Made by a program: the position numbers and the translations under genes. From the IMG/VR virus record IMGVR_UViG_3300018412_000011: a stretch of 64,000 nt of DNA, one strand, 5' to 3'. This stretch comes from an uncultured virus (IMG/VR IMGVR_UViG_3300018412_000011). Taxonomy: Duplodnaviria > Heunggongvirae > Uroviricota > Caudoviricetes. The first letter of the stretch is position 1, and every line of letters begins with the position of its first letter. This document shows positions 899 to 21,920 of this stretch, piece after piece. The notes beneath the pieces are model-generated. The model was not told the DNA's origin. It made no database searches and saw nothing but the letters and a program-made list of their open reading frames with translations.

Positions 899-2734
899 TT
901 ATTTATAGTAATGTGGTTTTGTTATTGTTTCTCTTAGGTCAAAACCATAGGAACGACGACTAACCGAAACAATCATAGGGGCAAGTTCTCTTTTGACAAT
1001 CCCTAGGCCATCATAAAGATTCCACCATCTTTGTAAGTCTGCAACAAAATCTCTTCTATTGGCAAAAATTTCGTAAACATCAACTGGACATCCAAGATGT
1101 TCATTTAATTTGCCTTCGTCATAATAATAGAGAGTTGTTTCAAAAGAATCTCGATCCCATTTTTCAACCCAACTCATAAAAAGATAGTCGTGATAATCGT
1201 AAATTAAAGGATCGCCTTTCCCTTCAACAATATTTTGGTCCGCACTCAATTCAGCAGAAGGAATCATACTTAATGTTTCCTCTGGAATTACATTTTTAAT
1301 GTTCTCATTGTGCCATTTGCAAAGATCATAAATTTGATGTTTCCAAAGATCCATAACAGGAGCTAGAAATCCCATTAGATCGCCTCCAATGGTACAATAC
1401 CCTACAGTAGCTTCAGATTTGTTCCCGTTGCATGTGAATACCCCTCCGACCATTTGAGCAATACCCGCAAGAACACTATTAGAACGGTATCTAGCTTGGA
1501 TATTCTCAAAAGAAAGTTGATCGCATTTTTTCAACAAAGCATCTTCCAAACTATTCTTAATCGCATTTACTTCATTTTGAATTGGAATAGATAAATATTG
1601 ACATCCAATATTCATAGCTAATTTTTCAGCCGCGCTTATTGTTTGATTAGAATTAAAGTTTGTTGGCATATTGACAAGATATAAATTTTCTTTGTCAATG
1701 AATTGAGAAAAGATAGCTGCAACAAGAGAATTATCAACGCCTCCAGATGCCCCAATAACTACTTTCTTGATTCCAAACATTTCACAATATTTTTGACAAG
1801 CATATGTAATTGCCATATGAAGATATTGTTCATCAGAAATATTATCGCTTGTATAACATTCGCCCACCACCATAGTATTGTCATCCGTTATTACAACACT
1901 CTTAACCCCCTCTTCAAAAGGCTTGAAAAAGGAATATTTCATCTCGTTAGAATACACACAAGAATCTCCATCAAAAGTATACATTGTTTTTGCATTGTTT
2001 TGCGTCCCAACATTATTGACATAAAACAATTTCACATGAGTATTTGTTTTTTTGTCCAAAGATTTAGTATGCTTAGAGAAAACTCTATTTCTTTTATCAT
2101 TCTTTCCTTGAGTATAGGGAGAACAACTAAGATTTAAAATCACATTGACATCATCATCAATATGTTCGAGAGGCTTAATTACATAATCATCATCCCAACC
2201 GTCTTCGCAAATGATACATTGGATTCGATTTTTCCCAATATAAAGAGGCTTATGAAAAGGAATTTTAGGCTTTTCTGCTTTCCAATCTTCTTGGGTCATT
2301 TCTTGAAATATTTTGTCCGCCATAGATTTGCGAGCACTATAAAAATGACGATCATCATCAAACTCCCGATAATTAGGTTGCAAGAATTTTGTTTGAGTAT
2401 CCCAAATTCTTCTGTCTTTTGCGATGAAAACGCAATTTTCTAGTCTAGCTCTTCCATCTTCTCCTTTCTGGGAATAAGAAGCCTTAACGCTACCCCAAAT
2501 GATAATAATGTTTTCTGCTAATTTTGCTATTTTGAAATTTGCCTCTTCGCATTCTTGAATAAAAGATTTTCGTTCCCAATTGTCTCCTATGAGATATCCA
2601 GGCACGCACATTTCGGGGAACACAATTACATCAGACCTATCTTCTTTGGCTTTTTCAATGGCTTTGAGCATAGAAAGCCTATTCTCTTGGGGACTGCCAG
2701 AAACAACTTCAATTTGGGCAACAGTTATTTTCAT
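899..2734 (-). CDS. nadE: Glutamine-dependent NAD+ synthetase
   Basis: N-terminal nitrilase-type glutaminase (VFPE; K in QTKFLQPNYREFDDDRHF; ICEDGW) fused to a synthetase domain (GASGGVDN PP-loop variant, ENIQAR, GNKSE..GYCT, PSAEL). Confidence 0.95.
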   Translation of the reverse strand: MKITVAQIEVVSGSPQENRLSMLKAIEKAKEDRSDVIVFPEMCVPGYLIGDNWERKSFIQECEEANFKIAKLAENIIIIWGSVKASYSQKGEDGRARLENCVFIAKDRRIWDTQTKFLQPNYREFDDDRHFYSARKSMADKIFQEMTQEDWKAEKPKIPFHKPLYIGKNRIQCIICEDGWDDDYVIKPLEHIDDDVNVILNLSCSPYTQGKNDKRNRVFSKHTKSLDKKTNTHVKLFYVNNVGTQNNAKTMYTFDGDSCVYSNEMKYSFFKPFEEGVKSVVITDDNTMVVGECYTSDNISDEQYLHMAITYACQKYCEMFGIKKVVIGASGGVDNSLVAAIFSQFIDKENLYLVNMPTNFNSNQTISAAEKLAMNIGCQYLSIPIQNEVNAIKNSLEDALLKKCDQLSFENIQARYRSNSVLAGIAQMVGGVFTCNGNKSEATVGYCTIGGDLMGFLAPVMDLWKHQIYDLCKWHNENIKNVIPEETLSMIPSAELSADQNIVEGKGDPLIYDYHDYLFMSWVEKWDRDSFETTLYYYDEGKLNEHLGCPVDVYEIFANRRDFVADLQRWWNLYDGLGIVKRELAPMIVSVSRRSYGFDLRETITKPHYYK

Positions 2735-2740
2735 GGGGCA

Positions 2741-2768
2741 TTTATATCAACTTCTTCTGATATGTCAA
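2741..2768 (-). promoter_or_regulatory. Sigma70-type promoter TTGACA-N16-TATAAA, 6 nt before the nadE ATG (leaderless)
   Basis: Read directly from sequence; the same geometry recurs at several other genes. Confidence 0.7.
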
Positions 2769-2867
2769 TCCTTTTTTGACGAGAATCCATCATTTCACGA
2801 ATTTTCCCATAAAAAATCAAGAAAACCAAAATTAACCAAATAATTGTAACAATTATATCTTCCTTTT

Positions 2868-4568
2868 TCATTTCATTTTTGCTTTGTAAACTTGATTACC
2901 ATCAATGTAGTGAACTGTTCCCAATACATTATATAGCTTATTGACATTAGAGAAGGGAGGGTTGGAAATAACTTTCACTCCAGAATCCTTGAAAATTTCC
3001 AAAGTGCTTTCGGTTGCCAATGCAGTCACCCCATTAGGCAAAACAGTAAAGGAAATTGGACCCAAAGGAACATCATTTTCTACTCTTACAGTATATGTTT
3101 TGTAATCTTCCTCAAAAGAAAAAATAAATCTAGAATAAATGCCGTTATGTTCTGCATAAACAACACAAATATTCTCTTCCATTTTAGCATCAATAATTCT
3201 GTAGGAACCAAGTTCTGAAATTTTCAAAGTGTTTACACAATTCTGACGATTTCTTTCATAAGGAATAACGAAATGGGTTTCTCCGAAAATAGATTCGATA
3301 ACTAATCCTTCAAAAACATTTGTGGATAGCTTCATCACTCCAGCCACTACTTTTAAGCCTCCTACAATTTTGTTTCCAAATCTGTTGAAGGAAATTTCAA
3401 TCATTTTCCCTTGATTAACTGAGTAAACCTTATCACCTTTAACAAAAAAACCTTCAGAATGTACTTTTTGGAGTACATCTTGGGTTCTGAAATTATAACA
3501 AGATAAATCAGTGCCATTTAAGACAACTGCCACTGGCATATTGCCTCCAATATCAATGAGTTTAATCTTCTCATTGATTTTGGATTTTCTAATGGGAGTG
3601 TCCATTATTCCATCTTTATAAATTCCATCATTTTGAACCCAATAAGGGACTCCCATAAATGAATAGAAGTCGATAATATCTCCTTTGGTTTCAGCAACCA
3701 AATCAATATCAAAATGTCCATCAGATATATCAACATCAAATTCAAATTGAGATTCAATATTGGAACTGAAATCAGCCAATGTGGGGGGGGCAAGTCTTTT
3801 GTTTCCCAAAAACATCTTCTTAAACCACTCTAAATGAGAAGCTGGAATCATAGAAAAATCTCTAAAAGGTTTGGGTAATTTTGCTTTGGGATCAAAAACA
3901 GACACCCCATCTTTCATTTTTTTCACCCATTCTTTAGGCTTATAATCTGGATGCCCTCCTCGATAGGGATGGATGCCTACCCAAAGATAAAAACTTAAAA
4001 TCCCAAAAGAAAACCAATCACTATTTTCAGTCCATTTGTTGTCTTTAATTTCAGGGTCTCGAATAGACTCCATGATTGCATCTGCCTTATAAGAAGGGGT
4101 TTTATAAGAATCTGTGTCAATGAAAAACACTTCAGAAAAATTTTCATCAACAAGAATGTTCATTTCATTCAAATCAACAATGAGGAAACCAGCATCGTGA
4201 ATGTATTTTACAATATCTTGGATTTGTCCAATTAAATCATTAACTTGTTGGTCTGTAATGTTGTTGTTCTTTTTAAATGTCTTTGTGAACAACTGACACA
4301 AGGGAAGACAATTATCTTTGAAGTCGGTTAGATAACCAATTGCCTTAGATTTTTCATAAACAATTTCTTGAGGGGCTAAAACATTTGGATGCTTAATTCC
4401 TTGAAGTTCTTTAATCTTCTCTACAGGAATCATTTGTTTGGGGTTTTTGTATATTTTGATTGCTTTCCCATTAACACAAAAAATATCTGCTTGACCTCCA
4501 GAAGCTTTATAGTTCGAAGAATCAAGTTTGATTTCTCCCATTCCATTTATTTTAACTTTTTTTTCCAT
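2868..4568 (-). CDS. Ser/Thr protein kinase-like (YegI/TerY-P triad type) with a beta-rich C-terminal region
   Basis: Gly loop SGGQA, AIKIY lysine, catalytic loop DLNEMN, DTDS in place of DFG, SDWFSFG, HPYRG. Confidence 0.85.
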   Translation of the reverse strand: MEKKVKINGMGEIKLDSSNYKASGGQADIFCVNGKAIKIYKNPKQMIPVEKIKELQGIKHPNVLAPQEIVYEKSKAIGYLTDFKDNCLPLCQLFTKTFKKNNNITDQQVNDLIGQIQDIVKYIHDAGFLIVDLNEMNILVDENFSEVFFIDTDSYKTPSYKADAIMESIRDPEIKDNKWTENSDWFSFGILSFYLWVGIHPYRGGHPDYKPKEWVKKMKDGVSVFDPKAKLPKPFRDFSMIPASHLEWFKKMFLGNKRLAPPTLADFSSNIESQFEFDVDISDGHFDIDLVAETKGDIIDFYSFMGVPYWVQNDGIYKDGIMDTPIRKSKINEKIKLIDIGGNMPVAVVLNGTDLSCYNFRTQDVLQKVHSEGFFVKGDKVYSVNQGKMIEISFNRFGNKIVGGLKVVAGVMKLSTNVFEGLVIESIFGETHFVIPYERNRQNCVNTLKISELGSYRIIDAKMEENICVVYAEHNGIYSRFIFSFEEDYKTYTVRVENDVPLGPISFTVLPNGVTALATESTLEIFKDSGVKVISNPPFSNVNKLYNVLGTVHYIDGNQVYKAKMK

Positions 4569-5273
4569 TCAACTTCCAAAGTAAATATAAAATTTTCCGT
4601 CTCTTTTTTTGAATCCCTCTAAAAAAATATGATCCATATCGGGAACATGAGATTGCAATTCATTTGCTTTCTTCATAACATCATACCAAGTGGGGTTTAC
4701 AAGAGTAAATGAAGTCTGAAGATCTTTGTATTCAGGATCATAATCAACAATACCTAAAAGATTGTTCATAACGAAATGATATTCCTCTCCTTCACAATCA
4801 GGCTTAAAAGATTCATTCCAATTCTTTTTAGGAAAAGCACAAATATACAAGGGACTACTTTGATTATCTTTTTCAAGCAAAGTTTCTAATTCGTCACGTA
4901 ATTTTTTCTCCCTTTTTTCTTTTTCTTCGTATTCTCTTTCTATTTTTTCAGCTTCTTTTTTCCATTGTTCGGTTTTCTGAAAAAAGTTGTTATCATCTAA
5001 ATATTTATCAAATGATTCTTGAACATTGCAAGAGCAAAGTTTATCTATAAGCCTAATAAAAAGAGAACCATGATGAGGGTTAACACAAACATTGGCACCA
5101 ATAACTTCCACATTACGAAACCCTAATTTTTCAGCAAATTCTTTTGTTTCAAAAAACTTTTCAACATTTTTTTGAATATGCCAAGGGAAGCCTTCTTTCA
5201 CTCCCATTTGACTAGAAGAAATGATAATTTCACATACTTCTTGGGGAATGATCTTTCTTGTTGTCTTTTTCAC
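4569..5273 (-). CDS. Hypothetical protein between the PP2C and kinase genes
   Basis: 234-aa ORF, GTG start 6 nt after a predicted -10 box. Confidence 0.65.
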   Translation of the reverse strand: MKKTTRKIIPQEVCEIIISSSQMGVKEGFPWHIQKNVEKFFETKEFAEKLGFRNVEVIGANVCVNPHHGSLFIRLIDKLCSCNVQESFDKYLDDNNFFQKTEQWKKEAEKIEREYEEKEKREKKLRDELETLLEKDNQSSPLYICAFPKKNWNESFKPDCEGEEYHFVMNNLLGIVDYDPEYKDLQTSFTLVNPTWYDVMKKANELQSHVPDMDHIFLEGFKKRDGKFYIYFGS

Positions 5274-5279
5274 GGTTGA

Positions 5280-5307
5280 ACCTTAACATGTTCCAAGGAC
5301 AAGTCAA
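5280..5307 (-). promoter_or_regulatory. Promoter TTGACT-N16-TAAGGT, 6 nt before GTG 5273
   Basis: Read directly from sequence. Confidence 0.6.
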
Positions 5308-6305
5308 TCCAATTTTTTGTTTATTTTCAAGGAAGCAAAAGAAATATCGTCATGGTGTTTAATACCCTCCTTTACCCATTTGCGTTGGAAAAAATTCACT
5401 TTTCGTTTTACAAAATCTCCATTGAAATTTTTATAGTCGAAAAGATCTAGGGTCAACTGCAACTCATCAACAGGTTCATTGTTTGCTTTTATAAAAGAAC
5501 TTAATCCATCAGAAGCAATTGCTATTAAATCTAGATTTTTGAAAACATTTATTCGATCCGCCATAAAGTTAGCATACAAATCTATTTGAGGATTTTCATC
5601 AAACAAATCGTAATCATAATCATTCGGAAAGAATATCTTTTCCCGAATCGAATTGCATTCCACATAACACGATTTATCTCCAAAAAATTCCATGTAATTC
5701 CAAATTCTCTTTTTATTACAATTCTTTTCGTTAGGAACACCTGTTGGATTAAAAAGAGAATGTTGAGGTTCCAATACATATGAAAAATAGAAGGGAGCAT
5801 TGCTATTGAAAACTGTTTTTCGATATTTTTTTTTATTTTGATATTGAAAAAAGCAAACTCCATCTCCTAATGTAAATTGAAGAAAGTAATTTTGATATTG
5901 AACTACTACTAAGATAGTAGCGTCAAGAACTTCAGTGGGAAAATTGTAAGTAATCAAAAAATCACAACAACGATCATACAAATTATATATAAACTTGGAA
6001 GAAAAAGATTTTTTGTCAAATTTTTCTTCCCAAAAAGCCGCTCTATAACGGGTATCAACAATATAAGGAATTTCTTCCTTAAGTGTATTAACAACATTCC
6101 AAGCTAATGCCTTCGCCCCAAAATCAACTTTTTTAGTTATCTCATGTGAACTAGAACAGCCATCGCATAAAACCAAAGTGTTGAATTCATCTATCTCTTT
6201 GGTTTCGAGATTTCTAAATCTTACATTTTGGTGAATCGCATAATCTTGACAGACATCATGCGATTCACCAATTTTGTAAACAGAATCTAATCTTGTTCCA
6301 AACAT
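5304..6305 (-). CDS. PP2C-family protein phosphatase (YegK/TerY-P triad type)
   Basis: G.SH..CQD, LCDGCSS, LGDG, ASDG and HHDD motifs. Confidence 0.88.
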   Translation of the reverse strand: MFGTRLDSVYKIGESHDVCQDYAIHQNVRFRNLETKEIDEFNTLVLCDGCSSSHEITKKVDFGAKALAWNVVNTLKEEIPYIVDTRYRAAFWEEKFDKKSFSSKFIYNLYDRCCDFLITYNFPTEVLDATILVVVQYQNYFLQFTLGDGVCFFQYQNKKKYRKTVFNSNAPFYFSYVLEPQHSLFNPTGVPNEKNCNKKRIWNYMEFFGDKSCYVECNSIREKIFFPNDYDYDLFDENPQIDLYANFMADRINVFKNLDLIAIASDGLSSFIKANNEPVDELQLTLDLFDYKNFNGDFVKRKVNFFQRKWVKEGIKHHDDISFASLKINKKLD

Positions 6306-7054
6306 TAGATAATCAACAAGCTAGAGGATGCTCCACTTGTCCCTGCACTTCCATTTGCTAAAGACTGCGAGGAAGAAACAATGCTTTGGCTGACGTATCC
6401 CGCGAGTTTTGCTAATGCGTTTTCAGGATTGGATTCGTTGAACAACTCTGTCATGGAAACAAACTGATTCAATTCAGCTTCATCTTTAAGGTTGTCAAGA
6501 TAATCCGCAATATCTTCATATCCAACCCCAATCAAAATGACACTCAAAGATTCAAGATATTCGTCTCGAATACAACTTCCAATTCTACTTTTGATTTCTG
6601 TGGTTGTAAAAGAGGAAGTGTTATCCGCTCCATCTGTAAGAACATAAACCACTCCGTTCGCAAGGAACTCTTGATCTTGCAAGATTCTCGCATATTCATT
6701 CATGGCTTCAATGCCTTGAACAATAGCGTCATAACAACTAGTAGAACCTCCAGGATTCAAACTTCCAACATATTCATCAACATTGATGTCATCCAAAAGT
6801 TTAAACCCATGTATTTCATTAACACTTTGATTAAAAGTCAAAATGCGAACCATGAGGTTTTCACTTCTTGGACTTGCTTTGCACGACTCAATAATTGTTT
6901 GAATGCATTGTTCAAGTTCTAGGTGGAATCCATGAACGGAGGCAGAAACGTCAACTGCAATGGTTACAAGAGTGTATTCAGATGCCCCCAAGTCATCAAC
7001 ACTTGTAGCACTAAATTTAAAATTAGAGGGGGTTTGTACTGTTAGATCGGGCAT
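6305..7054 (-). CDS. vWA-domain protein (TerY/YegL-like)
   Basis: MIDAS motif DVSAS, GGST..YDAI, LTDGADN. Confidence 0.88.
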   Translation of the reverse strand: MPDLTVQTPSNFKFSATSVDDLGASEYTLVTIAVDVSASVHGFHLELEQCIQTIIESCKASPRSENLMVRILTFNQSVNEIHGFKLLDDINVDEYVGSLNPGGSTSCYDAIVQGIEAMNEYARILQDQEFLANGVVYVLTDGADNTSSFTTTEIKSRIGSCIRDEYLESLSVILIGVGYEDIADYLDNLKDEAELNQFVSMTELFNESNPENALAKLAGYVSQSIVSSSQSLANGSAGTSGASSSLLII

Positions 7055-7071
7055 TTTATCTTCCTTTTATT

Positions 7072-7392
7072 TTATGATGTTTTTTGTTTTTTAATTACTC
7101 TTACATGAAAGCAATTTGGAATTCGAAATATTTTTGAAATACGACCTTGAGCAGGATATTCTTTTCCTCCCATTCCCTTTCCATATAGATGATGTTTTAG
7201 AATAGTCCGGTCAGTATCTAAATTCAGAATATTAAATCCTTTGGAAGTTACTTTAATAAATTTACAATGTAAGGTTTTGTTTCCAATCGAAACTTCAAGC
7301 TCATCTCCTAAAGTTAACTGAACTTCATGTGTTTGAGAAAAATAATCTCTACGAAATCTAATTAATTTAGAAGATGGCTTTTTGTCAGTCAT
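7072..7392 (-). CDS. Hypothetical protein
   Basis: 106-aa basic ORF preceded by an AAGGA SD. Confidence 0.55.
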   Translation of the reverse strand: MTDKKPSSKLIRFRRDYFSQTHEVQLTLGDELEVSIGNKTLHCKFIKVTSKGFNILNLDTDRTILKHHLYGKGMGGKEYPAQGRISKIFRIPNCFHVRVIKKQKTS

Positions 7393-7441
7393 GAACTTTC
7401 CTTATAATTTTTATACATACCATTTTTTTTAATCTTTGGCA

Positions 7442-7467
7442 AGGACTTTTTGAACAAAAATTCGAAT
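7442..7467 (+). promoter_or_regulatory. SigH-like promoter AGGA-N18-GAAT upstream of the endonuclease gene
   Basis: The motif recurs upstream of several genes. Confidence 0.45.
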
Positions 7468-7500
7468 AAAGTCATAAATAGTATAAGCTAAAGAGGGAAA

Positions 7501-8607
7501 ATGAATCAAAATAAAAAAATAGATGAAATAAGAAAAATTTTTAAAAAAAATGGATATGTATTGATAACAAAAAAATATGAAGGATGCAAACAAAAATTCG
7601 AATGTATTTGTCCCAACGGGCATAAACAACATAGATCAAAACAAAGTATAAAGGAAGGTAGGGGATGCAAAGTGTGTATGGGTAAAGAAAGATATTCCTT
7701 TGAATATGTTAAAAGATTTTTCGAAAATAAAAATTGCAAATTGCTCTCTACTGAATATCGAAACAATAATCAATTACTAGAATATATTTGTGCTTGTGGA
7801 GAAAAAAGCGAGATAAGGTTCAGAAGCTTCCAAGGTGGGGGGCGATGCAAAAAATGTCAATCTGAAAGAGCAATAGAAACCAACAAAAACAATCACAATG
7901 GGAAACATCATTTTCAAACAGAATCTTTTAAAAAGAAAAGGGGTAAGAAAAACCTAGAGAAGTATGGGGTAGAACATGTCTTGCAAAATGAAGAAATTAA
8001 AGAAAAAATGAAGAAAACAAACTTAAAAAGATATGGAACAGAATTCGTTTTTCAAAATGAAAACGTTAAAGAGAAAATAAAGAAAACGAACTTAGAAAAA
8101 TATGGGGTAGAATACAATTTGCAAAACGACAAAATATATGAGAAATTCCAAAATACATTAATGGAAAGATACGGAGTACCTAGTTTAGCTTATTTATCTA
8201 CCCCTGCCTCAAAAGAAAGCCAAGTTTTATTCTTCGAAATACAAAATAAGATGATAGAAAGTAAGATTGACATAAGCAAAAATTATTTTGCTTCTTTAAA
8301 TCAAGAATTTGTAATAAAATATTTATCCAACTATTATAAATATGATTTTGTCAATACAAAATTAAAAAAATGTATAGAATACAACGGCAAGAATTTCCAT
8401 CCACACCCAAGCCAAAAAGAAGATGAAACAGGTTGGTGTGCCTTTCATCCACACAAAACAGTTAAAGAAGCTAGAAGGTATGAAGAAAAAAAACTAGAGG
8501 GGATAAGAAAAAGAGGCTTCGAAATCTTGGTGGTTTGGGATTATGAATTACACCAAGATTTCGAAGCATTAGTCGAGAAGTGTTTAACTTTTATAAAAGA
8601 AAAGTAG
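7501..8607 (+). CDS. Putative free-standing homing endonuclease (Zn-ribbon repeats, KTNLEKYGVE repeats, C-terminal Vsr/DUF559-like nuclease)
   Basis: CPNGH..CKVC and CACG..CKKC; repeated (K)TNLEKYGVE..LQN; YDF....K.CIEYNG..FH...GFEILVVW. Opposite strand to both neighbours. Confidence 0.75.
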   Translation: MNQNKKIDEIRKIFKKNGYVLITKKYEGCKQKFECICPNGHKQHRSKQSIKEGRGCKVCMGKERYSFEYVKRFFENKNCKLLSTEYRNNNQLLEYICACGEKSEIRFRSFQGGGRCKKCQSERAIETNKNNHNGKHHFQTESFKKKRGKKNLEKYGVEHVLQNEEIKEKMKKTNLKRYGTEFVFQNENVKEKIKKTNLEKYGVEYNLQNDKIYEKFQNTLMERYGVPSLAYLSTPASKESQVLFFEIQNKMIESKIDISKNYFASLNQEFVIKYLSNYYKYDFVNTKLKKCIEYNGKNFHPHPSQKEDETGWCAFHPHKTVKEARRYEEKKLEGIRKRGFEILVVWDYELHQDFEALVEKCLTFIKEK

Positions 8608-9451
8608 AACTATTTTCTATTCTAACCCCAATGCTTTTCATGTCATTAAAGAAAGCATGACCTAAGTTCTCAAAACCAGGAACGTCACTCATACAGTCTT
8701 CTAATAGAATAAACTTTTTGGCTTGTTCTCTGCCAAAATTTTCAATCACATCTCTTATGGTGTCAGCTACACAAAAATTTCTTGCTTGACCAGAAATAAT
8801 AATCATATCGGCTTCTGCCATGTTGTTGAGAATTTCAGTATTAAGCCCCGTAGAAGGATCAGCGGGATCAACTACGTCTGCTTTAATCGCACTGTAATGT
8901 TCTGTCCAAGGGTTCGACCCCTTGACTTGATAGTCAACGGTTTTATGTCGATTTTTAGCCCAATTGGAAAGGGCGGTGGAAATGGGTTCATAAACGGCAT
9001 GACCACTATATTCGAAAGTAAGAGGATTTCCATCATGAACAATCGAATCTCCATTTTCATCCAAAAGGGGTTTGAGTTCAGTTTTTCCGATAATACAGTG
9101 AGGAGGCCAAATGCAAAGAGGTTTCTTACTGTTTCGAGTAAGTTCTTTTACATACTCAACTCCCTTTTGAGGAATGATGGCTTTCCAAACCCCATTGACA
9201 ACATCTTGTTCAGAAATAATAGTGAAAGGAGCGGGATGTTCTCCATTCGAGTTTGTCCACATAATAGGGTGGGCAATATCAACTTCATTATGACTGTCCA
9301 AAGTAATGTGGATGTCATCAATTTTGCGTTCATTGCGGGCGATAAATTCCGCAAATCGTACACTGTCTTCTACTGCACCTGGAACAGAAAGATTTCCTTG
9401 TGGGTGGCAGAAGTCATTTTGAACATCAATTCCTAAAATATGAATTTTCAT
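8591..9451 (-). CDS. pncA: Nicotinamidase / isochorismatase-family cysteine hydrolase
   Basis: IDVQNDF, metal ligands LDSH and WPPHC, catalytic Lys in VKG, G.A.NFCV nucleophile. Confidence 0.8.
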   Translation of the reverse strand: MKIHILGIDVQNDFCHPQGNLSVPGAVEDSVRFAEFIARNERKIDDIHITLDSHNEVDIAHPIMWTNSNGEHPAPFTIISEQDVVNGVWKAIIPQKGVEYVKELTRNSKKPLCIWPPHCIIGKTELKPLLDENGDSIVHDGNPLTFEYSGHAVYEPISTALSNWAKNRHKTVDYQVKGSNPWTEHYSAIKADVVDPADPSTGLNTEILNNMAEADMIIISGQARNFCVADTIRDVIENFGREQAKKFILLEDCMSDVPGFENLGHAFFNDMKSIGVRIENSSTFLL

Positions 9452-9469
9452 AATTAATTTCCTTTGTTT

Positions 9470-9505
9470 TTTGTTTGTACGTCATACTTTGTTTGTACGT
9501 CATAC
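9470..9505. repeat. Perfect 18-bp tandem duplication (tttgtttgtacgtcatac x2) in the pncA leader
   Basis: Read directly from sequence. Confidence 0.9.
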
Positions 9506-9531
9506 TTTACTGTTTTCTTTATCAATGTCAA
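9504..9531 (-). promoter_or_regulatory. Promoter TTGACA-N16-TAAAGT upstream of pncA
   Basis: Read directly from sequence; an AAAGGA SD precedes ATG 9451. Confidence 0.6.
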
Positions 9532-9539
9532 TACTTTTT

Positions 9540-9860: not shown

Positions 9861-9885
9861 TTTTAATTTCCCTTCTTAGTGGTAT

Positions 9886-10077: not shown

Positions 10078-10079
10078 AA

Positions 10080-10838: not shown

Positions 10839-10874
10839 TTAATTTGATAATGTTTGGTGGTGATATATAAAAGT

Positions 10875-11685: not shown

Positions 11686-11688
11686 AAT

Positions 11689-14461: not shown

Positions 14462-14464
14462 CAA

Positions 14465-15262
14465 TCATTCGACAGTAAGTTGATCCTTCAAATCATTCAA
14501 CGTTTGTTTTTCAATTTGACGAATTCTTTCTCTAGTAAGATTGTGTTTTACCCCCAAATCTTCAAGTCTCACTTTTTCATCTTGCAAGTAACGAGATACA
14601 ATAATGTCTTTTTGAAGATCATCAAGTCCTTCGACAATAGCCAAAAGTTCTTTTTTATCCTCATTTTTTTCAATTACTGTGAAAGGCGACAAAACATTTT
14701 CGTCTTCTAAAGTTTGTCCATAGGTTGATCCATCTTCTGCAATTTCTAAATCCATTGATGTAGATCTTACATTAGACATTTTAACTTTCCACAATTTACT
14801 TTTGGTCCATCCCATTTTATCACGAATTTCTTCATCACCTAATCCATCTTTTTTAAAGTTCAAATATTTAGCACGAAGATCAACGATATTGGAATCAATT
14901 GTAACATCATGGGAACTTGCGTAAAGATATTTTTTAATACCTTGCTTAATCCACCAAGATGCATACGTAGAAAATTTACTCTTGGTAAGTTTATTTGGGT
15001 CAACCCGACGAACTGCTTCCATCAAACCTTCATTTCCTGCTGAAATTAAGTCTTCAGCAGGTGTCCCAGTAGAACGTGCAAATTTGAAAGCAATAGTAAC
15101 TACTAATTTAAGATTACTTTCCACTAAAACTTCTGTAGCTTTTTGTTTTTCCTTATCTGAGTAATTCCCTTGGATAATAGAAGCTAAATTCCTCTCTTCA
15201 TCTCTAGAAAGTAATTCATGTTTCCCGATTGTATCTAAATATGAATCTATTGCTGTTTTCAT
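14465..15262 (-). CDS. Sigma-70 family factor (RpoD/RpoS/RpoH-like, regions 1.2-4)
   Basis: YL..IG..ELLS.DEE, SNLKLVV.IA, DLISAGNEGLM.AV, KFSTYASWWIKQ, LTRERIRQIE. Confidence 0.93.
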   Translation of the reverse strand: MKTAIDSYLDTIGKHELLSRDEERNLASIIQGNYSDKEKQKATEVLVESNLKLVVTIAFKFARSTGTPAEDLISAGNEGLMEAVRRVDPNKLTKSKFSTYASWWIKQGIKKYLYASSHDVTIDSNIVDLRAKYLNFKKDGLGDEEIRDKMGWTKSKLWKVKMSNVRSTSMDLEIAEDGSTYGQTLEDENVLSPFTVIEKNEDKKELLAIVEGLDDLQKDIIVSRYLQDEKVRLEDLGVKHNLTRERIRQIEKQTLNDLKDQLTVE

Positions 15263-15374: not shown

Positions 15375-16196
15375 TTAGAAGAACAGTTTTTCTTTGTTTT
15401 TTCTCTTTCCTTCTAATTGCGGACTTTGAGGGTGTATGTTTGATGGAAGTTCTTTTCTTAATAGATGATAAAGTTTCTCAAATGAAATATTCCCTTTTGC
15501 TTTTAATATATTTGTCGCATTATATGTCATCGCTCCCATGTATTTTCCACCAAGATACGCATCATAACTATATTGAGAAGCATTACAACCTGTTAATAGC
15601 ACTTCATTTTGTCGTCCTTTAGGGGATAATAATTGGTTGCGAGTCGTAACCTCCATTGCTGCTTCTAATTCATCTTCGGGGGGCAAATATCTTGGTTTCA
15701 CATATCCCTCTTCTGAGAAAAGACCCAATACAGAACGAGTCATTGTTCCAGAATGGCAACTATCAGAAATAATTGTCAATGATGCTGAAGGATGCATAGA
15801 ATCAATAAACCTTCTAATATGGTCATCGACCAGCAATCCGTCCCAAAGAACCCACGCTTCATCTCTACCATCAGACTCATCTTTATTTTTGTCTGCGGTA
15901 TGAGTTCCATGTCCAGAAAAAGTCAAAGCTCCTTTGAAATTTTCTCCATATTTGTTAGATAACTTTTCTAGTTCTCTAAAAATACTTCTAACTTCGCTTT
16001 GAACAACTTCCGAGTCTTTTAAGAAAGTAGTTGTGTAACCATATTGGCTATAAAGTTTTTGCCACGCAGATGCATCATTAACGCATCCTCGAAGGTCATT
16101 TTGAGTTCCTCTATAGTCATTGATTCCTAAGTTAAAAGCAACTTTGCTTCCACTTATATTAGATCTTTGAGGCTTATTATGTTTTTTCGACAACAT
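15375..16196 (-). CDS. Metacaspase / caspase-like C14 peptidase
   Basis: GINDY....LRGCVNDA, FSGHG (His), DGRDE, SDSCHSG (Cys), Q.PQL. Start reassigned to ATG 16196 after an AGGAG SD. Confidence 0.9.
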   Translation of the reverse strand: MLSKKHNKPQRSNISGSKVAFNLGINDYRGTQNDLRGCVNDASAWQKLYSQYGYTTTFLKDSEVVQSEVRSIFRELEKLSNKYGENFKGALTFSGHGTHTADKNKDESDGRDEAWVLWDGLLVDDHIRRFIDSMHPSASLTIISDSCHSGTMTRSVLGLFSEEGYVKPRYLPPEDELEAAMEVTTRNQLLSPKGRQNEVLLTGCNASQYSYDAYLGGKYMGAMTYNATNILKAKGNISFEKLYHLLRKELPSNIHPQSPQLEGKRKNKEKLFF

Positions 16197-16197
16197 C

Positions 16198-16650
16198 TTA
16201 AAAACTCCTATTATCATTGTTAGAATTGTTATTGATAGAATCTGTATCAGTAGAAGTAGTTGTGGAACTAACAGTGACAGAGTTAGAATCTCCATTAATT
16301 TCCAAAGCTAAATCTTGGTTACTTTCATTTGAAGCTCTTTGGGTGTCCGAACTTCCTTCCGAATCATCTCTAACGTTATCATAAATAAGATATCCAGCGA
16401 GCAAATCAACTGCAACTGCAATTGCATGGCCTACTGGATCATTCGATATCCCTTCTGCAATAGAAGGTTCTTCAATGTTTCTTGCTTCAGGAGGAACTCC
16501 TTCTTCTAGATTTCGAACTGCTGTTGCCCGTCTTTCTTCTGCGATCTCGCCTCTGCTTTTGCTATTTACATAGGCACTTGCACAACTAGTAGATAGTATA
16601 AATGCAATCATCAAAAAAAATAATGATGCCATCTTAGTTAATGTTTTCAT
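16198..16650 (-). CDS. Predicted lipoprotein / exported protein
   Basis: Signal peptide ending in lipobox-like LSTSC; a second hydrophobic stretch; Ser/Thr/Asn-rich tail. Confidence 0.6.
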   Translation of the reverse strand: MKTLTKMASLFFLMIAFILSTSCASAYVNSKSRGEIAEERRATAVRNLEEGVPPEARNIEEPSIAEGISNDPVGHAIAVAVDLLAGYLIYDNVRDDSEGSSDTQRASNESNQDLALEINGDSNSVTVSSTTTSTDTDSINNNSNNDNRSF

Positions 16651-16746: not shown

Positions 16747-16750
16747 TTAC

Positions 16751-17410
16751 TCAATCAATATTGTGATTAATATTATCAGTTTCTTCAATAATTATTAGTT
16801 CTTTATCAGTTTTACTTATTTCATTAGCTTTTTGCCCCAAATACCCTGAATGATGCCTTAAATAGTAATCTTCAGGGGTTAACCCTATTAATTCCGACAA
16901 TAAAATAGCGATGGTGTCGGTTATAGCAAGCATCATAAGTATAGAAGAAGTGGGAGCTAACCCAAGATCCCCTATTTCTTGAAAATGCCCCATGTCAATA
17001 ATAACATTAGCCTTATCTCTTAACTTACTATCTTTGTGGGATGTGATGCCAATTATTTGAATTTTTGGAAATATTTTTTTACTCAAATCTGATATTTCCA
17101 AAATTTCTCTTGTTTTTCCAGAAGTTGACGCAACAAATAACACATCATTCTTGGAAATTAAGCCCAAATCTCCATGCATAGCCTCTCCTGCGTGTAAGAA
17201 AACCGAGGGAATTCCTAAAGAAGAAAGTGTCGCAGAAAATTTTTGCATTGCAATTCCTGCCTTACCCATGCCAGTTGTAATGATTTTTGAATCTTTTTTA
17301 TAGCAATCTAATATAGTGTCGATGACAATATCAATACTTTCATCAACATAAAGTTTAGATACTTGTTCTCCTAATTGACTTAGGTAATCATTAATTTTCT
17401 TTTGGTGCAT
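16751..17410 (-). CDS. SIS-domain sugar-phosphate isomerase (KpsF/GutQ/KdsD-like, no CBS domains)
   Basis: TGMGKAG, FLHAGEAMHGDLG, STSGKT.E, LAPTSS, HHSG.LG. Confidence 0.88.
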   Translation of the reverse strand: MHQKKINDYLSQLGEQVSKLYVDESIDIVIDTILDCYKKDSKIITTGMGKAGIAMQKFSATLSSLGIPSVFLHAGEAMHGDLGLISKNDVLFVASTSGKTREILEISDLSKKIFPKIQIIGITSHKDSKLRDKANVIIDMGHFQEIGDLGLAPTSSILMMLAITDTIAILLSELIGLTPEDYYLRHHSGYLGQKANEISKTDKELIIIEETDNINHNID

Positions 17411-18185
17411 TACCTAATTTACTTAGGATTTTATCCAAAATTAAATGAATAATCAATCCAAATTTTTCTTTTGCAGATTTTTTAGATAAATTAGTTTTTT
17501 TTTGAAACTTTTGTTCTTGGGCTTCTTGAACTTCTTGGGCTTCTTGAACTTCTTGGGCTTCTTGAACTTCTTGGGCTTCTTGGGCTTCTTGGGCTTCTTG
17601 GGCTTCTTGGGGTTGAATAACTTTTTTTTGAGAATCATCAATTTCTTCTGAAAACTGTTTTTCATTTAAGGATAAGGAAGGGGGCAAAAACTGGTTATTC
17701 TCCTCTCTATCTTGCAAATCGTCTTTAGGACTTCCCAAATAATCTTTATCTAAATTTTTCTTGGGGGGAGAAGACGAAAGGGGAGGAGTCCCTAAGAATT
17801 GATTTAAGAGTTCTCCGAAGGTATTATCAAATTCATAAGAATTTTTATTTTTCTCTTTTTCTTCTACAAAATCCAAAAAATCGTTAATTTCTTTTTGCGA
17901 TGCATCTTGAATACTTTCTGAGGTCAAAATGTTTTCATTAGGAGTAAATGCTCCATATCGTTCTACTACTTGTTCTTCTAATTCATTAATAGTGAATTCT
18001 CCATTCCTAACAAGCTGTTTGTATTCTTTGAATTTTCTATCAATTTTTTTCTGAAAATTAATGATTTCTTCAATATCATTAAAATTCAAAACAGAAGAAG
18101 TCGCCCCTTTGGTGATTTCATATTCGACAACAGTTTTGATACGTCCATCTAGAATAAGCGCGTCTTGGATGTTCTTTCTTTTCAT
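17391..18185 (-). CDS. Hypothetical acidic protein with a QEA/QEV repeat
   Basis: ORF; likely start ATG 18185. Confidence 0.6.
   Translation of the reverse strand: MKRKNIQDALILDGRIKTVVEYEITKGATSSVLNFNDIEEIINFQKKIDRKFKEYKQLVRNGEFTINELEEQVVERYGAFTPNENILTSESIQDASQKEINDFLDFVEEKEKNKNSYEFDNTFGELLNQFLGTPPLSSSPPKKNLDKDYLGSPKDDLQDREENNQFLPPSLSLNEKQFSEEIDDSQKKVIQPQEAQEAQEAQEAQEVQEAQEVQEAQEVQEAQEQKFQKKTNLSKKSAKEKFGLIIHLILDKILSKLGNAPKEN
17514..17610. repeat. 9-bp tandem repeat (ttcttgggc/ttcttgaac, about 10.5 copies) encoding (QEA/QEV)n
   Basis: Read directly from sequence. Confidence 0.95.
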
Positions 18186-18186
18186 A

Positions 18187-19230
18187 TTAAAATAAAACCT
18201 CATAATCTAACGTTTTAATATCAAAAAACTTTAAATATTCTTCAAAATTATTTTTGTTTGTAGGTTGTGCCTCAATAGAAGGTACAGGAATATCCATGTC
18301 CATCTTTTTCAATGAATAAGCTAATTCAATTCTCTTTTCAAAAACCAAAATCATAATCTCTGCTTTTGAAGCCTTAATTAATTTTTGTTCTAATGCAGAA
18401 AGTAACCCTGAATGTGGCATATTCCACGATACTTCGGGATACTTATTTTTCCCCGATTTAGTTTTTACATTTAAAACGTTTTCAGTAAAGTCTTCTTTAC
18501 TAGTTTCTCCATATTTCTCAATATCATCTTTATATTTATTCTTATAAAAGGCAAGAGTTTCCTCCCAACTTCCATGTTTCTGAATTTCTTTAATAGCTCC
18601 TTTGATTCCACATCCAGGTACTCCAAAAATATTATCTCCAGTGTCTCCCATTAATGCACCAACATCAATCATTTGTTGAGGACTTAGGTTATATTCCTCT
18701 CTGAATGTTTCCAAATCAATTTTTTCATTTTTCATCCCATCCCAAATCCAGACATTTTCTTTAATGAGTTGAAGATAATCTTTATCAGAAGTAACAAGAA
18801 CAACTTCATTGTTAGAGTCTGCCGACAAAATTTCTACATATGATGCAATTACATCGTCTGCTTCAAAACCTTCAACTAAAATTTGCGGTATTCCAGTTTG
18901 ACCTATTGCTTGTTGCAACATATATCCATGATCAAAGAATTCTTGCAAAGCAATAGGCGTTTCATCTTTATCTTTCTTCCTGTTGTCCTTGTAAGCAGAT
19001 TTAATAAGTCCTGCCTCAACTGCCACTTTACTCTCAGTTTTTCTTCTCTTAGATGAACTGTCCCATGCAATCAACATTTGATGTTCATGAAAATCTTTTT
19101 TTAAAGAAATTAAAGACTGGAAAAATCCATAATGAAAACCAGAGGGCATACCTAATGTGTTTTGCATTCCTTGGTGAGTAAATGCATTGCGAATTGCCAA
19201 ATTGTTTCCGTCAATTAATAAATATTTCAT
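18187..19230 (-). CDS. 5'-3' exonuclease / flap endonuclease (PolA N-terminal or T4 RNase H type)
   Basis: LIDGNN, WD, YK.NR, EADDVIA, SDKDY.QL, LMGDTGDNI.GV.G.G.K.A. Confidence 0.93.
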   Translation of the reverse strand: MKYLLIDGNNLAIRNAFTHQGMQNTLGMPSGFHYGFFQSLISLKKDFHEHQMLIAWDSSSKRRKTESKVAVEAGLIKSAYKDNRKKDKDETPIALQEFFDHGYMLQQAIGQTGIPQILVEGFEADDVIASYVEILSADSNNEVVLVTSDKDYLQLIKENVWIWDGMKNEKIDLETFREEYNLSPQQMIDVGALMGDTGDNIFGVPGCGIKGAIKEIQKHGSWEETLAFYKNKYKDDIEKYGETSKEDFTENVLNVKTKSGKNKYPEVSWNMPHSGLLSALEQKLIKASKAEIMILVFEKRIELAYSLKKMDMDIPVPSIEAQPTNKNNFEEYLKFFDIKTLDYEVLF

Positions 19231-19248
19231 GAGAAAATCATACTTAAT

Positions 19249-20199
19249 TTATTTATAATTTTCAAGACTTTTTTGACCATAATTTTTAACCGCCTGAATA
19301 ACCTGTTGATTTAGATTGAATAGTTTGTTGTCAAATCTCATCTTTTCAATACGCTTTAAAGCCCCAACTTTTCTGCCCATCCAATATTCGTCTCCGTTTT
19401 CTTGCAAGTGTTTTTTGTGTCTATAAAAAATGGTCCTTCTAGAAGGTAAAAATGGAATGCCATCACTTATAAATGTATTGCTTACGTATGTCTTCCATAA
19501 AATTTTAGCATAAAGTTCTCCATTCAAAGGTTTCTTTATATTTTCCCATTGTTTGTTCTCGGGAGGCATATAATCTTTAAACAACATAGGCCAAATAGGA
19601 GATATTCCGTTGCCAACATCGCTCCTAGTTTTATGATCAATTGGAATCCCCAATGCTTTAATATGAGGTAACAAACGGGAACTAATTCTTGCATATGTTA
19701 TTCCCTTTTTATTTTCAATGCGTTGCAATCCTGCCATAAGACCCGCAACATATTCGATAGAATCCTCATTTCCTTTTAGGTAAAGGGCGGGAACAGATTT
19801 CCAATGGTGGGGTTCCATATTAGATTCTGCTGGATATTGTTTGCCTCCAAACGGAGAAGCGTTAATCATATCCCAAATATGAGGGCATGCATTCCAAGAA
19901 AAAGAAGGAAACGTTTGTTTTTTGTATTGAACCACTCCAACTTTTGTAAGTCCTTGAATGAAACTTCCACTCCAGATTGGATGTTCCCATTTTATTTTTT
20001 CTTTCAAGTACCATTTGATATTGCCAATAGTAATAGTATCAAAAGAAGGGAGCACTTCTTCTTTATCCCAATACTTATATATATCTTCTTCTGAGATGTT
20101 TTTTCGTCGTTTACCTAAATTTCCTTTTTCTAAGACTGTTCTTGATAAAACTTCGCACCTATAAAGTTTTTCTTCATATGGAATGGAAGGACGAGACAT
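19249..20199 (-). CDS. Hypothetical basic protein with a possible degenerate LAGLIDADG-like segment
   Basis: KSVP.LYL.....EYVAGLMAG....ISSRLL..IKALGI resembles intein endonuclease blocks D/E/H without the acidic residue. Confidence 0.5.
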   Translation of the reverse strand: MSRPSIPYEEKLYRCEVLSRTVLEKGNLGKRRKNISEEDIYKYWDKEEVLPSFDTITIGNIKWYLKEKIKWEHPIWSGSFIQGLTKVGVVQYKKQTFPSFSWNACPHIWDMINASPFGGKQYPAESNMEPHHWKSVPALYLKGNEDSIEYVAGLMAGLQRIENKKGITYARISSRLLPHIKALGIPIDHKTRSDVGNGISPIWPMLFKDYMPPENKQWENIKKPLNGELYAKILWKTYVSNTFISDGIPFLPSRRTIFYRHKKHLQENGDEYWMGRKVGALKRIEKMRFDNKLFNLNQQVIQAVKNYGQKSLENYK

Positions 20200-20205
20200 A
20201 CCATA

Positions 20206-20418
20206 TTATACCAATAATTTTAATGGATATACTTCTAAAAAGACATAGGGTTTGACATCTTGATCTTCCACATATCCTCTGTTAGAAAATCCAATGCCTA
20301 AATCAATGATTTTGTAAGCCTTGATATAAAATCCCATAAAATTGGGATTACTAGACCACCACTTCATCATAATAGATTTGGTTTCTTTATAAGATGGAAT
20401 ATTTTGAATTTTTGACAT
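20206..20418 (-). CDS. Hypothetical protein
   Basis: 70-aa ORF. Confidence 0.4.
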   Translation of the reverse strand: MSKIQNIPSYKETKSIMMKWWSSNPNFMGFYIKAYKIIDLGIGFSNRGYVEDQDVKPYVFLEVYPLKLLV

Positions 20419-20451
20419 TTCAATCTTTTGCGTTATATGCTTTCTTCACTT

Positions 20452-20757
20452 TTAAGTTTGAAAATTTGCAAATCCTTTAGGTGGATTAACTGTTAAAGAT
20501 CCATCACCCAAAAATGCAACTTTATCAACCCAAACCAAATCATCTTTCATTAAATCTTTGGGTTGCAACAATATTTCGACTCCATCCCGAATTGAAACAA
20601 AAGAATGATAATTTGTTGTGCCTAATGTTGCCCCTCCATCAAAATGTATAGTATATACATCTAAGCCGTGATGAGGCATTTGCCGAAGAATTACTCTCTT
20701 AACTGTAAGAAGAACGTTCGGTCCCTCTTTTGCTTCATGTTTCAATTTATTCATCAT
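20452..20757 (-). CDS. Stand-alone intein/Hint-like fragment
   Basis: VYTIHFDGGATLGTTNYHSF....G......KDL..DDLV (block B TxxH) followed by FLGDGS. No N-terminal Cys block A and no C-terminal HN. Confidence 0.55.
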   Translation of the reverse strand: MMNKLKHEAKEGPNVLLTVKRVILRQMPHHGLDVYTIHFDGGATLGTTNYHSFVSIRDGVEILLQPKDLMKDDLVWVDKVAFLGDGSLTVNPPKGFANFQT

Positions 20758-21920
20758 TTTACTCTATATGCTTTCTTTACTTTTTCAATCATACGGGGAT
20801 CTCCCATATTCTTGCCTTTATCATCAGAAAGTTTAATGCAACTTTGGTCATTGCATTCGAGTAATTTCATGACGATTGCAAGAGCTTTAACTCCATCAAA
20901 GTCATTGGTGATGTTGGTTCCAATACCGAAACTCACTCCAGTACGACCAATAAAACGCCTCCAAATATCAAGAGCAAGAGGAAAATTTAATCCATCCGAA
21001 AATACAACCGATTTTCTGCGAGGATCAATGCCAATAGATTCCCAATGTTTAATGGCTTTTTCTCCAAATTCAAAAGGACACCCACTATCATGTCGAATTC
21101 CATCATAACCTCTAGCAAGATTAAAGTCAAAATCTCTAAAGAATGCATCACTTGTAAAGGTGTCTGTTAATGCAATACCAAGTTTTTGTCCATATTCTTG
21201 TTGCCAAACATGCAAAGCTCTTTTTTGTGCTTGGCTAATGTTGTCAACAATACCTAAATGAGCCATTGTCCATTCATGAGCTACTGTACCAATGGGCTTG
21301 AGATTGTAATCCATTGCCAATTTGACATTGGATACTCCCACAAGATTGTTGGGAACCATTTCCATTTGAATTTGTAAAGCTTGTTCTTGCCAATATTTCG
21401 AAAAACGTCTGCGAGTCCCAAATTCCGCATATTTGAATGTGGGATAATCTTTAATCAAATGAAGTTTATTACGAAGAATTCTCTCCGCATTCATATATTT
21501 CAAATTATCATCAAAATTATCAAAATATAGTTCATTGACAGTTGCAAGTAAAGGAACCTCATACCAAATAGTATCAAGCCAAGTTCCCATCGCCTCAATA
21601 ACCAAATCTCCACCAACATTTTCAATATAAATTCGGTTAGAATCCAAACAAAAATCATTTTCTAAGAATTGAATAAAATCTTCTGTAAAAAAAGGAATTG
21701 TCCTAAGATAATTTGCTTCTTTTTTAGTTATTCTTAAATTATCCCAAGACTTAACTTGTTCGTTTAATTCATTTTTAATGAAACCAAGTTCAACCCCCTT
21801 GTTGCGACATTTGAATTCCCAACGAACTTTTGCATTGGGATATTGGTGAAATACCGCTTGCATCATAGAAAGTTTATAAAGATCTGTGTCGATAAAATTT
21901 GTGACAATTTGTTTGTTCAT
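20754..21920 (-). CDS. pncB: Nicotinate phosphoribosyltransferase
   Basis: DTDLYKLSMMQAV, EFGTRRRFS, GTVAHEW (phospho-His), ALTDTF, GIRHDSG, FSDGL, FGIGT..TND, KLSDD.GK. Confidence 0.93.
   Translation of the reverse strand: MNKQIVTNFIDTDLYKLSMMQAVFHQYPNAKVRWEFKCRNKGVELGFIKNELNEQVKSWDNLRITKKEANYLRTIPFFTEDFIQFLENDFCLDSNRIYIENVGGDLVIEAMGTWLDTIWYEVPLLATVNELYFDNFDDNLKYMNAERILRNKLHLIKDYPTFKYAEFGTRRRFSKYWQEQALQIQMEMVPNNLVGVSNVKLAMDYNLKPIGTVAHEWTMAHLGIVDNISQAQKRALHVWQQEYGQKLGIALTDTFTSDAFFRDFDFNLARGYDGIRHDSGCPFEFGEKAIKHWESIGIDPRRKSVVFSDGLNFPLALDIWRRFIGRTGVSFGIGTNITNDFDGVKALAIVMKLLECNDQSCIKLSDDKGKNMGDPRMIEKVKKAYRVK

Follow-up and report, generated by a model that had tools for sequence, protein, structure and literature searches.

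A huge-phage gene set predicted to recycle NAD+ through deamidated intermediates, with its long-form nicotinamidase beside a TerY-P-like kinase module

What use would a phage have for a nicotinamidase, a nicotinate phosphoribosyltransferase and a glutamine-dependent NAD+ synthetase? The question is raised by a stretch of 64,000 nt from the uncultured virus IMGVR_UViG_3300018412_000011, referred to here as the window, in which the genes for the three enzymes (pncA, pncB and nadE, respectively) are found; the same PncA sequence appears on a JGI contig of 101,740 bp, and the window covers 64 kb of the genome. Bacteria commonly defend themselves by depletion of NAD+; so far, three phage pathways, NARP1–3, have been proven to restore it. 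Our answer, held with moderate confidence, is that the window comes from a huge phage carrying an auxiliary set of genes for NAD+ recycling, the entry step of which would be regulated, and that the set would help to maintain the NAD+ pool, including against defences of the SIR2/TIR type.

The open reading frames (ORFs) of all three genes are intact and stop-free on the minus strand, with nadE at 899–2734, pncA at 8591–9451 and pncB at 20754–21920. The 388-residue product of pncB scored above the curated NCBIfam cut-offs (478.8 bits against a cut-off of 379 for NF003704, and 419.7 bits against 269.55 for TIGR01514), contains both Pfam domains, NAPRTase_N and NAPRTase, and, in a sequence search of the PDB, matched nicotinate phosphoribosyltransferases only (six of six matches, the best being 3os4, at 3.5e-92). 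Because of these three results we assign the enzyme, at the level of sequence, to PncB and to neither Nampt nor Namat; the PHROG Nampt family gave a mere 54.7 bits. The GTVAHEW motif (H215) aligned with GTQAHEW of 3os4, and the protein shares 52.5% of its residues with the PncB that is syntenic with it in G001, one of two huge-phage records of IMG/VR, G001 and G002, that are collinear with much of the window (see below). The same synteny extends to a block at 16751–20199, upstream of pncB, which in the window and in both records encodes a KdsD/GutQ-like SIS sugar-phosphate isomerase, a 270-residue ORF, a flap endonuclease and a 316-residue ORF; a search of the ESM Atlas with this conserved 316-residue ORF gave no usable match.

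The 611-residue NadE scored above the Pfam cut-offs for two domains, for CN_hydrolase with 29.1 bits and for NAD_synthase with 130.6, and its best match in the PDB was the glutamine-dependent NadE 5kha (1.9e-48). In the alignment with 5kha, the segments FPE (E41), K116-x3-PNY and C176-ED are in register, and the protein has an N-terminal glutaminase of the nitrilase type, with the Glu-Lys-Cys triad E41/K116/C176, and a C-terminal synthetase, the SGGVD loop of which begins at residue 330. Its score of 306.3 bits against the NCBIfam equivalog PRK13981 is below the cut-off of 479, and it is therefore a divergent member of the family; it is 44% identical to the NadE that adjoins PncA in G002.

The 286-residue product of pncA scored below the cut-offs of its families (22.3 bits for Pfam Isochorismatase, PF00857, where the cut-off is 27, and 26.5 bits for NCBIfam PRK11609, where it is 174), because two insertions, which add about 80 residues to the ~180–216 of the solved PncA structures, break the match. 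Residues D9, K177 and C227, which we take from those structures to be the catalytic triad, and D52, H54, H61 and H118, presumably the metal ligands, are invariant across 46 homologues, as is the motif WPPHC. An AlphaFold model made from the 46-sequence alignment has a pLDDT of 96.8, and its 14 best matches in a Foldseek search of the PDB are all nicotinamidases (2wta, E = 7.1e-15). The family numbers 1252 homologues, of about 264–290 residues, which carry the JGI name nicotinamidase/pyrazinamidase. Residues and predicted fold together point to a long-form nicotinamidase, in which we would expect the corresponding activity. A preliminary description of this DNA had named the same three enzymes, and its assignments are borne out by the curated PncB scores, the NadE domains and triad, and the PncA residues and fold. 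Also near pncA are a fragment of a PTH2-like peptidyl-tRNA hydrolase (9540–9860) and an RNA ligase of the Rnl1 type (11689–12915); in G002 the RNA ligase directly adjoins PncA, and that record carries in addition a Tpt1-like RNA 2′-phosphotransferase, the reaction of which uses up NAD+ and sets nicotinamide free.

With these enzymes, PncA would convert nicotinamide to nicotinate, PncB would combine nicotinate with phosphoribosyl pyrophosphate (PRPP), supplied by the host, to give nicotinate mononucleotide (NaMN) in an ATP-coupled reaction, NadD, supplied either by the host or by another part of the phage genome, would convert NaMN to nicotinate adenine dinucleotide (NaAD), and NadE would amidate NaAD to NAD+ with glutamine. 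The logic of this sequence, which had been set out in the preliminary description, is supported, as is its statement that the window lacks an adenylyltransferase. Of the steps from nicotinate to NAD+, the 64 kb provide those of PncB and NadE, and the NadD/NadM/NadR step was not found in them: Pfam scans of 67 window ORFs showed no NadD, NadM, NadR, PnuC, Nudix protein or Prs, and none of the 103 stop-to-stop frames with 90 or more residues contained an HxGH motif of the nucleotidyltransferase type, three bare H/TxGH strings in two of the frames not being that motif. Among the related records, G001 has a NadD about 175 kb from its PncA (TIGR00482, 121.7 bits, above the cut-off of 112.45). Two further records, G003 and G004, have NadD-like genes for which NadD is the best NCBIfam match, at 83.8 and 80 bits and so under the same cut-off; in both, the gene directly adjoins the cluster and has as a neighbour a gene for an NrtR-like Nudix protein, and the gene order in G003 is PncA-vWA-PP2C-STK-PncB-NadE-NadD. 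No NadD is present in G002, which is rated 87% complete.

How regularly the three genes accompany one another was surveyed in three collections. A long-PncA profile search of IMG/VR returned 129 relatives, from which 80 viral loci were kept; the same profile, run against bacteria and archaea at one genome per species, returned at least 574 relatives, from which 80 cellular loci were kept; and the GenBank phage set comprised 50,697 records. Counts over whole records were made for the 36 of the 80 viral records that are at least 100 kb long, the 44 shorter ones being left out, and 14 of the 36 are near-complete (at least 90%). PncB was found in 24 of the 36 (11 of the 14 near-complete records), NadE in 19 (10 of 14) and a CTP_transf_like gene, which sets an upper bound for NadD, in 19 (11 of 14). 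Tallied from the record tables, PncB is accompanied by NadE in 17 of the 36 records, and both by CTP_transf_like in 13 (8 of the 14). The gene set recurs as a unit in viral records with a long PncA. PncB and NadE are present without CTP_transf_like in four of the 36, and these include G023 (L054), a record of 349,793 bp that has direct terminal repeats and a completeness rating of 100% and that contains PncA, PncB and NadE. It is a natural case of a phage route with three of the four steps, and because the record is rated complete, borrowing of the host NadD is plausible. Of the GenBank phage records, four have the long PncA, 13 have PncB and 18 have NadE, and two of the four PncA records (LR756511 and LR756500) contain the whole set; with genes so rare, the grouping of the three is not due to chance. 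PncB and NadE are also encoded by a cultured huge phage, Agrobacterium phage Atu_ph07. A megablast search of the same phages with positions 1–24000 of the window gave zero matches, and a scan of IMG/VR with the single PncB protein gave zero relatives. When metagenome contigs were scanned for exact matches to 41 bases of the window, two small ones (2217 and 1510 bp) were recovered.

Between pncA and nadE lies a block of genes that the preliminary description had overlooked. It encodes, in this order from pncA and on the same minus strand, an ORF of 106 residues (7072–7392), a von Willebrand factor A (vWA) protein of the TerY-like kind, 249 residues in length (6305–7054), with an intact metal ion-dependent adhesion site (MIDAS) and a Ser-rich C-terminal tail, a PP2C-type protein phosphatase of 333 residues (5304–6305), an ORF of 234 residues (4569–5273) and a Ser/Thr protein kinase of 566 residues with a predicted C-terminal beta-propeller (2868–4568). 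The 106-residue ORF matched no family and the 234-residue ORF nothing in Pfam, NCBIfam, PHROG or PADLOC, and in tblastn searches neither had a match in any of the 80 viral loci. An NCBIfam scan of all five proteins gave nothing specific. On the plus strand, a free-standing homing-endonuclease-like gene (7501–8607; Pfam DUF7487, 1e-27, and PHROG homing/HNH endonuclease families) is inserted between pncA and the vWA gene and, at its end, overlaps the stop of pncA by 17 nt.

The vWA and PP2C proteins are recognized at the family level. The window vWA protein gave a sub-cut-off score of 18.6 bits with VWA_2, Pfam VWA was matched by 17 and VWA_2 by 13 of 59 homologues, and a sequence search of the PDB with the vWA profile gave no match; the window PP2C protein scored 20.7 bits with PP2C_2, under the cut-off of 24, and 44 of 46 homologues match this family, the best at 1.9e-17. 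The kinase exceeded the Pfam Pkinase cut-off (45.1 bits against 31.7). The module looks functional, because the residues on which each protein would depend are invariant among its homologues: the MIDAS residues D35, S39, T105 and D141 of the vWA protein, as well as S222, S224 and S229 of its tail; the metal-binding motifs DG48–49, DG148–149, DG266–267 and DD319–320 of the phosphatase; and, in 53 homologues of the kinase, G24 and G25 of the Gly-loop, the Lys K38, the catalytic Asp and Asn (D132 and N137) and the DFG-equivalent Asp, D151. The AlphaFold2 model of the kinase (pLDDT 90.2) consists of a kinase domain (residues 1–267), a disordered linker and an all-beta domain (residues 286–565). 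In a Foldseek search with this model the top 16 among the matches listed were of the kinase-WD40 half of LRRK2, a likeness that we regard, from the model, as architectural only.

The TerY-P triad, as described in PMC11090510, combines a TerY-like vWA protein with a phosphatase of the PP2C type and a Ser/Thr kinase. As far as the published descriptions of TerY-P and of the Escherichia coli YegL-PphC-YegI proteins go (PMC11090510; bioRxiv 10.1101/819920), the window has the same three protein types in the same order, vWA-PP2C-kinase, and equally tightly packed, and in E. coli K strains an ORF of unknown function likewise lies between the phosphatase and kinase genes. In contrast, the described TerY-P kinases end in a zinc ribbon, or in an OB fold in a defence variant, whereas residues 286–565 of the window kinase appear propeller-like and the protein, with six Cys, has no CxxC pair; in addition, the window triad is fixed to a nicotinamidase, unlike TerY-P as described in these sources. 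Sequence and model thus make the block a TerY-P-like triad in which a propeller replaces the zinc ribbon or OB fold.

The link with the nicotinamidase extends well beyond the window. When the window proteins were used in tblastn searches of the 10 kb on either side of PncA, the vWA gene was found in 73 of the 80 viral loci, the kinase in 71 (mostly downstream of PncA) and PP2C in 63, with all three present in 62 and the one-strand order PncA<vWA<PP2C<kinase in 58; within the same distance PncB was found in 21 and NadE in 12. In the 80 cellular loci, the corresponding numbers were 41 for vWA, 27 for the kinase, 16 for PP2C, 16 for PncB and three for NadE, and in the 41 loci with a vWA gene this gene starts 19–449 bp after PncA. 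By these counts, the kinase module is tied to the long nicotinamidase in phages and in bacteria. From the linkage of the genes and their intact catalytic sites we infer a phospho-switch, TerY-P-like in kind, by which the adjoining vWA, PP2C and kinase-propeller proteins probably regulate the entry step. The joining of a nicotinamidase to a kinase, a phosphatase and a vWA protein in both phages and bacteria suggests a control point of NAD+ recovery, and this is the more original point to come from the locus.

The route itself is a known theme, of which the window would be a further instance. The preliminary description had proposed it as a reconstitution route different from those described, a claim that is not borne out as stated, since a study of 174 ‘NAD-jumbo phages’ (PMC11662467, Microbiome 2024) reports Preiss-Handler clusters, with pncB-nadD-nadE in Kuafu_71, and its Fig. 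S7 bears the labels ‘nadDnadEpncBpncA’ on Kuafu_71 and, on Zhurong_5, ‘pncApncB na nd aEdM’, which we read as overlapping labels for pncA, pncB, nadE and nadD or nadM. Like the phage of the window, these phages are huge, uncultured and endowed with pncB and nadE, and with pncA according to the labels of Fig. S7; their genes adjoin one another, nadD or nadM among them, whereas those of the window are spread over 21 kb with no adenylyltransferase in 64 kb. The main text of the study makes no mention of a pncA joined to vWA, PP2C and kinase genes (its supplementary tables may list more), and it proposes, without a test, that phage-made NAD+ counters NAD+ depletion. In the open-access and bioRxiv literature, we found nothing in print on a long nicotinamidase wired to a kinase, on a phage nicotinamidase or ‘NARP4’, or on TerY-P together with a nicotinamidase.

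The phage pathways demonstrated experimentally, as their reports describe them, are NARP1 (Adps and Namat), NARP2 (Nampt and Nmnat) and NARP3 (PnuC and NadR), and they show that rebuilding NAD+ does overcome NADase defences. The window route would resemble NARP1 and NARP2 in that the phage rebuilds NAD+ from nicotinamide; it differs from all three, as reported, in its deamidated intermediates and four steps, one of them not in the window, in sharing no genes with them and in being known from genes alone. Scanning the ORFs of the window with Pfam, NCBIfam and PHROG revealed none of the three gene pairs, and, conversely, the sections covered of the NARP preprint do not mention PncA, PncB, NadE or Preiss, nor do those of the NARP3 paper mention PncA, PncB or NadE. 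Vibrio phage KVP40, with NadV and NatV, is another large phage that has a route of its own from nicotinamide to NAD+ (as cited in PMC11662467). Bacterial salvage by pncA, pncB, nadD and nadE comprises the same four reactions, often under the ADP-ribose-sensing regulator NrtR; the length of the phage nicotinamidase differs from that of the solved enzymes, and, although G003 and G004 have NrtR-like proteins, no regulator was seen in the window. The KVP40 route, for its part, is said to be an amidated one of two enzymes, unlike the deamidating route proposed here.

If our reading is right, the NAD+ pool of the infected cell would be upheld whenever NAD+ is split to nicotinamide, including by SIR2/TIR-type defences; the deamidating route would be a fourth reconstitution pathway, supplied by the host with NadD and PRPP, and would account for the presence of PncA, PncB and NadE in many huge phages. 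Substrate flux through the enzymes, the use of host NadD, phospho-regulation and an effect on defences are all matters that we infer, and from the genes an anti-defence role of the three enzymes is plausible. A more specific version, in which PncA and the vWA/PP2C/kinase-propeller proteins form a phosphorylation-gated entry valve that would sense the breakdown of NAD+, say by means of the propeller or the MIDAS, and switch on the fourth, deamidating pathway against SIR2/TIR defences, is speculative, and we consider it rather unlikely.

Several points weigh against the recycling reading. The view is confined to the 64-kb window, beyond which lie some 38 kb of the source contig (101,740 bp) and the remaining genome; NadD and Prs were not seen in the window, and a Prs-like gene was found in just three of the 36 related records, none of them G001 or G002. 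Scattered across 21 kb, among genes for replication, nadE, pncA and pncB do not form one operon, and their common direction is uninformative because the surrounding genes are all on one strand; a promoter and terminator consensus scan of positions 1–12000 gave counts equal to those in shuffled sequence. With four steps, three ATP-consuming reactions and a need for PRPP and glutamine, the route would probably be slow and costly, compared with NARP1 and NARP2, during a collapse of NAD+. Moreover, removal of nicotinamide could relieve the product inhibition of NADases. All four GenBank phages with a long PncA are uncultured.

Regulation by the triad meets further objections. No column of the PncA alignment separates the 111 triad-linked from the 38 triad-less sequences, and therefore nothing marks PncA itself as a substrate of the kinase. 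The closest relatives, G001 and G002, carry PncA without the triad, the gene order in G002 being Rnl1-PncA-NadE. On a FastTree phylogeny of 158 PncAs, adjacency to the triad changes at least 16 times. Because the window PncA is sister to the triad-less PncA of G002 on this tree (SH-like support 99; no bootstrap), the triad would have been either gained in the line of the window or lost in its relatives. A search for repeats, whether direct or inverted, on either side of the vWA-to-kinase insertion gave short matches of low identity only, which do not decide between gain and loss.

Among the other explanations, the one that survives best is that the genes are a plain metabolic auxiliary set, supplying NAD+ to the replication and repair enzymes of the phage and to host metabolism in NAD-poor or vitamin-limited hosts, with no specific relation to NADase defences; we consider this possible, if somewhat doubtful. 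The placement of the genes is in its favour, as they lie within a replication and repair block beside an NAD-dependent DNA ligase, a placement kept in G001 and G002. The ligase gene (23346–25427, minus strand; Pfam DNA_ligase_aden, OB and BRCT) is 1.4 kb from pncB and syntenic in the two records, with 53–58% identity. However, the link to the ligase that the preliminary description had implied is weak, because a ligase gene is present in just 10 of the 36 long-PncA viral records and because such ligases release nicotinamide mononucleotide, not nicotinamide. A nicotinamidase would be useful only where NAD+ is cleaved to nicotinamide, and its presence points to NADases, ADP-ribosyltransferases or a 2′-phosphotransferase, and not to the ligase. 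The long PncA with its cassette is also found in ordinary bacterial chromosomes, as the cellular relatives attest, with PncB close by in a fifth of the loci examined, which is again in keeping with a metabolic role. In the literature, complementarity between phage and host NAD pathways is reported in PMC11662467, and a review of jumbo phages ascribes phage NAD+ synthesis, in the part that treats it, to the supply of resources (PMC13282480); against this, NARP1–3, as reported, show that a similar capacity has been selected as a counter-defence.

A second explanation reverses the emphasis: the nicotinamidase and the vWA, PP2C and kinase proteins would be primarily a conflict or signalling module of the TerY-P type, acting, for example, in superinfection exclusion or sensing, with the amidase as effector or sensor and the neighbourhood of pncB and nadE of secondary importance. 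TerY-P triads are described as accompanying restriction-type systems, and TerY-P-like modules as acting in stand-alone defence (PMC11090510). The vWA gene is a far steadier companion of PncA than PncB or NadE within 10 kb, and in the lineage of the window, G001 and G002 the cassette is present in the window only. We nevertheless consider this unlikely, as the amidase retains all the catalytic and metal-binding residues of a nicotinamidase, PncB accompanies it in most of the whole records, near-complete ones included, and the kinase has a beta-propeller where the described TerY-P kinases have a zinc ribbon or an OB fold. PADLOC, the TerY-P content of which is not established, gave no match for the vWA protein, PP2C or the amidase, and only weak, generic matches for the kinase and a caspase.

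The third alternative concerns the amidase itself, which might cleave another amide, either a derivative of nicotinamide or an unrelated small amide, so that the window would contain a two-enzyme nicotinate route of PncB and NadE. The family scores under cut-off and the ~80 extra residues would allow this, as would the query-normalized Foldseek TM-scores of 0.53–0.61 and the further isochorismatase-fold amidases that appear lower in the Foldseek list. The invariance of the metal-binding Asp/His set typical of nicotinamidases and of WPPHC, the nicotinamidases that occupy all 14 of the best structural matches and the co-occurrence with PncB make it very unlikely in our view.

The phage-like character of the genome noted in the preliminary description is supported by its relatives. 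The window is collinear from 8.6 to 64 kb (about 55 kb), gene for gene and with 30–59% amino-acid identity, with G001 (476 kb, CheckV 98% complete; collinear part at 130–183 kb) and G002 (161 kb; collinear part at 89–147 kb). PHROGs identified a portal protein and a large terminase in G001, at 1.7e-47 and 5.3e-28, respectively, together with a head protease; Pfam Terminase_6N had given no match in either record, the terminase of G001 then being found with PHROGs, and in G002 no capsid, portal or terminase family was found in the 27 ORFs scanned of the 29 large ones listed. Because the window is collinear with a record that encodes a portal and a terminase, its origin from a huge phage is well supported. 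The ends of G001 are labelled ‘provirus’ in IMG/VR, which we regard as a caveat and not as a sign of cellular origin. That the contig is cellular DNA, from a small-genome bacterium or a mis-binned fragment, is hardly credible: the window does lack capsid, portal and terminase genes, its tail-tube and virion-protein matches are weak, many of its genes are for replication and of bacterial type and the ‘provirus’ flag might be read in this sense, but the collinearity with G001 stands against it, as do the absence from the window of tRNAs and Rfam families, the absence of ribosomal-protein families from the Pfam matches of the 67 scanned ORFs, and the presence of inteins, several homing endonucleases and many ORFs without a family.

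The remaining genes include several of interest in their own right. One intein apiece is carried by a topoisomerase I gene (44107–47682) and an SbcC-like gene (52650–56414), and both inteins include a homing endonuclease of the LAGLIDADG type (Pfam Intein_splicing, Hom_end_hint and LAGLIDADG_3). A caspase-like Peptidase_C14 gene (15375–16295; 69.5 bits), the source of the weak PADLOC caspase match, occupies the same position in G001 and G002, with 46–48% identity. Three sigma-70-like factors (14465–15262, 40816–41712 and 58783–59613) are all kept in the two records; one has regions 1.2, 2, 3 and 4, and the other two match region 2 only. A protein with two SpoVS domains (58051–58713) is 55–56% identical in G001 and G002, and G002 (L190, L193) also has three transposase genes (phrog_506) within a huge-phage record. 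Host-like metabolic genes at 32076–33128, 25481–26080, 48476–49057 and 49585–50346 encode a GMP reductase/IMPDH-family protein, a thymidine kinase, a peptide deformylase and a radical-SAM protein.

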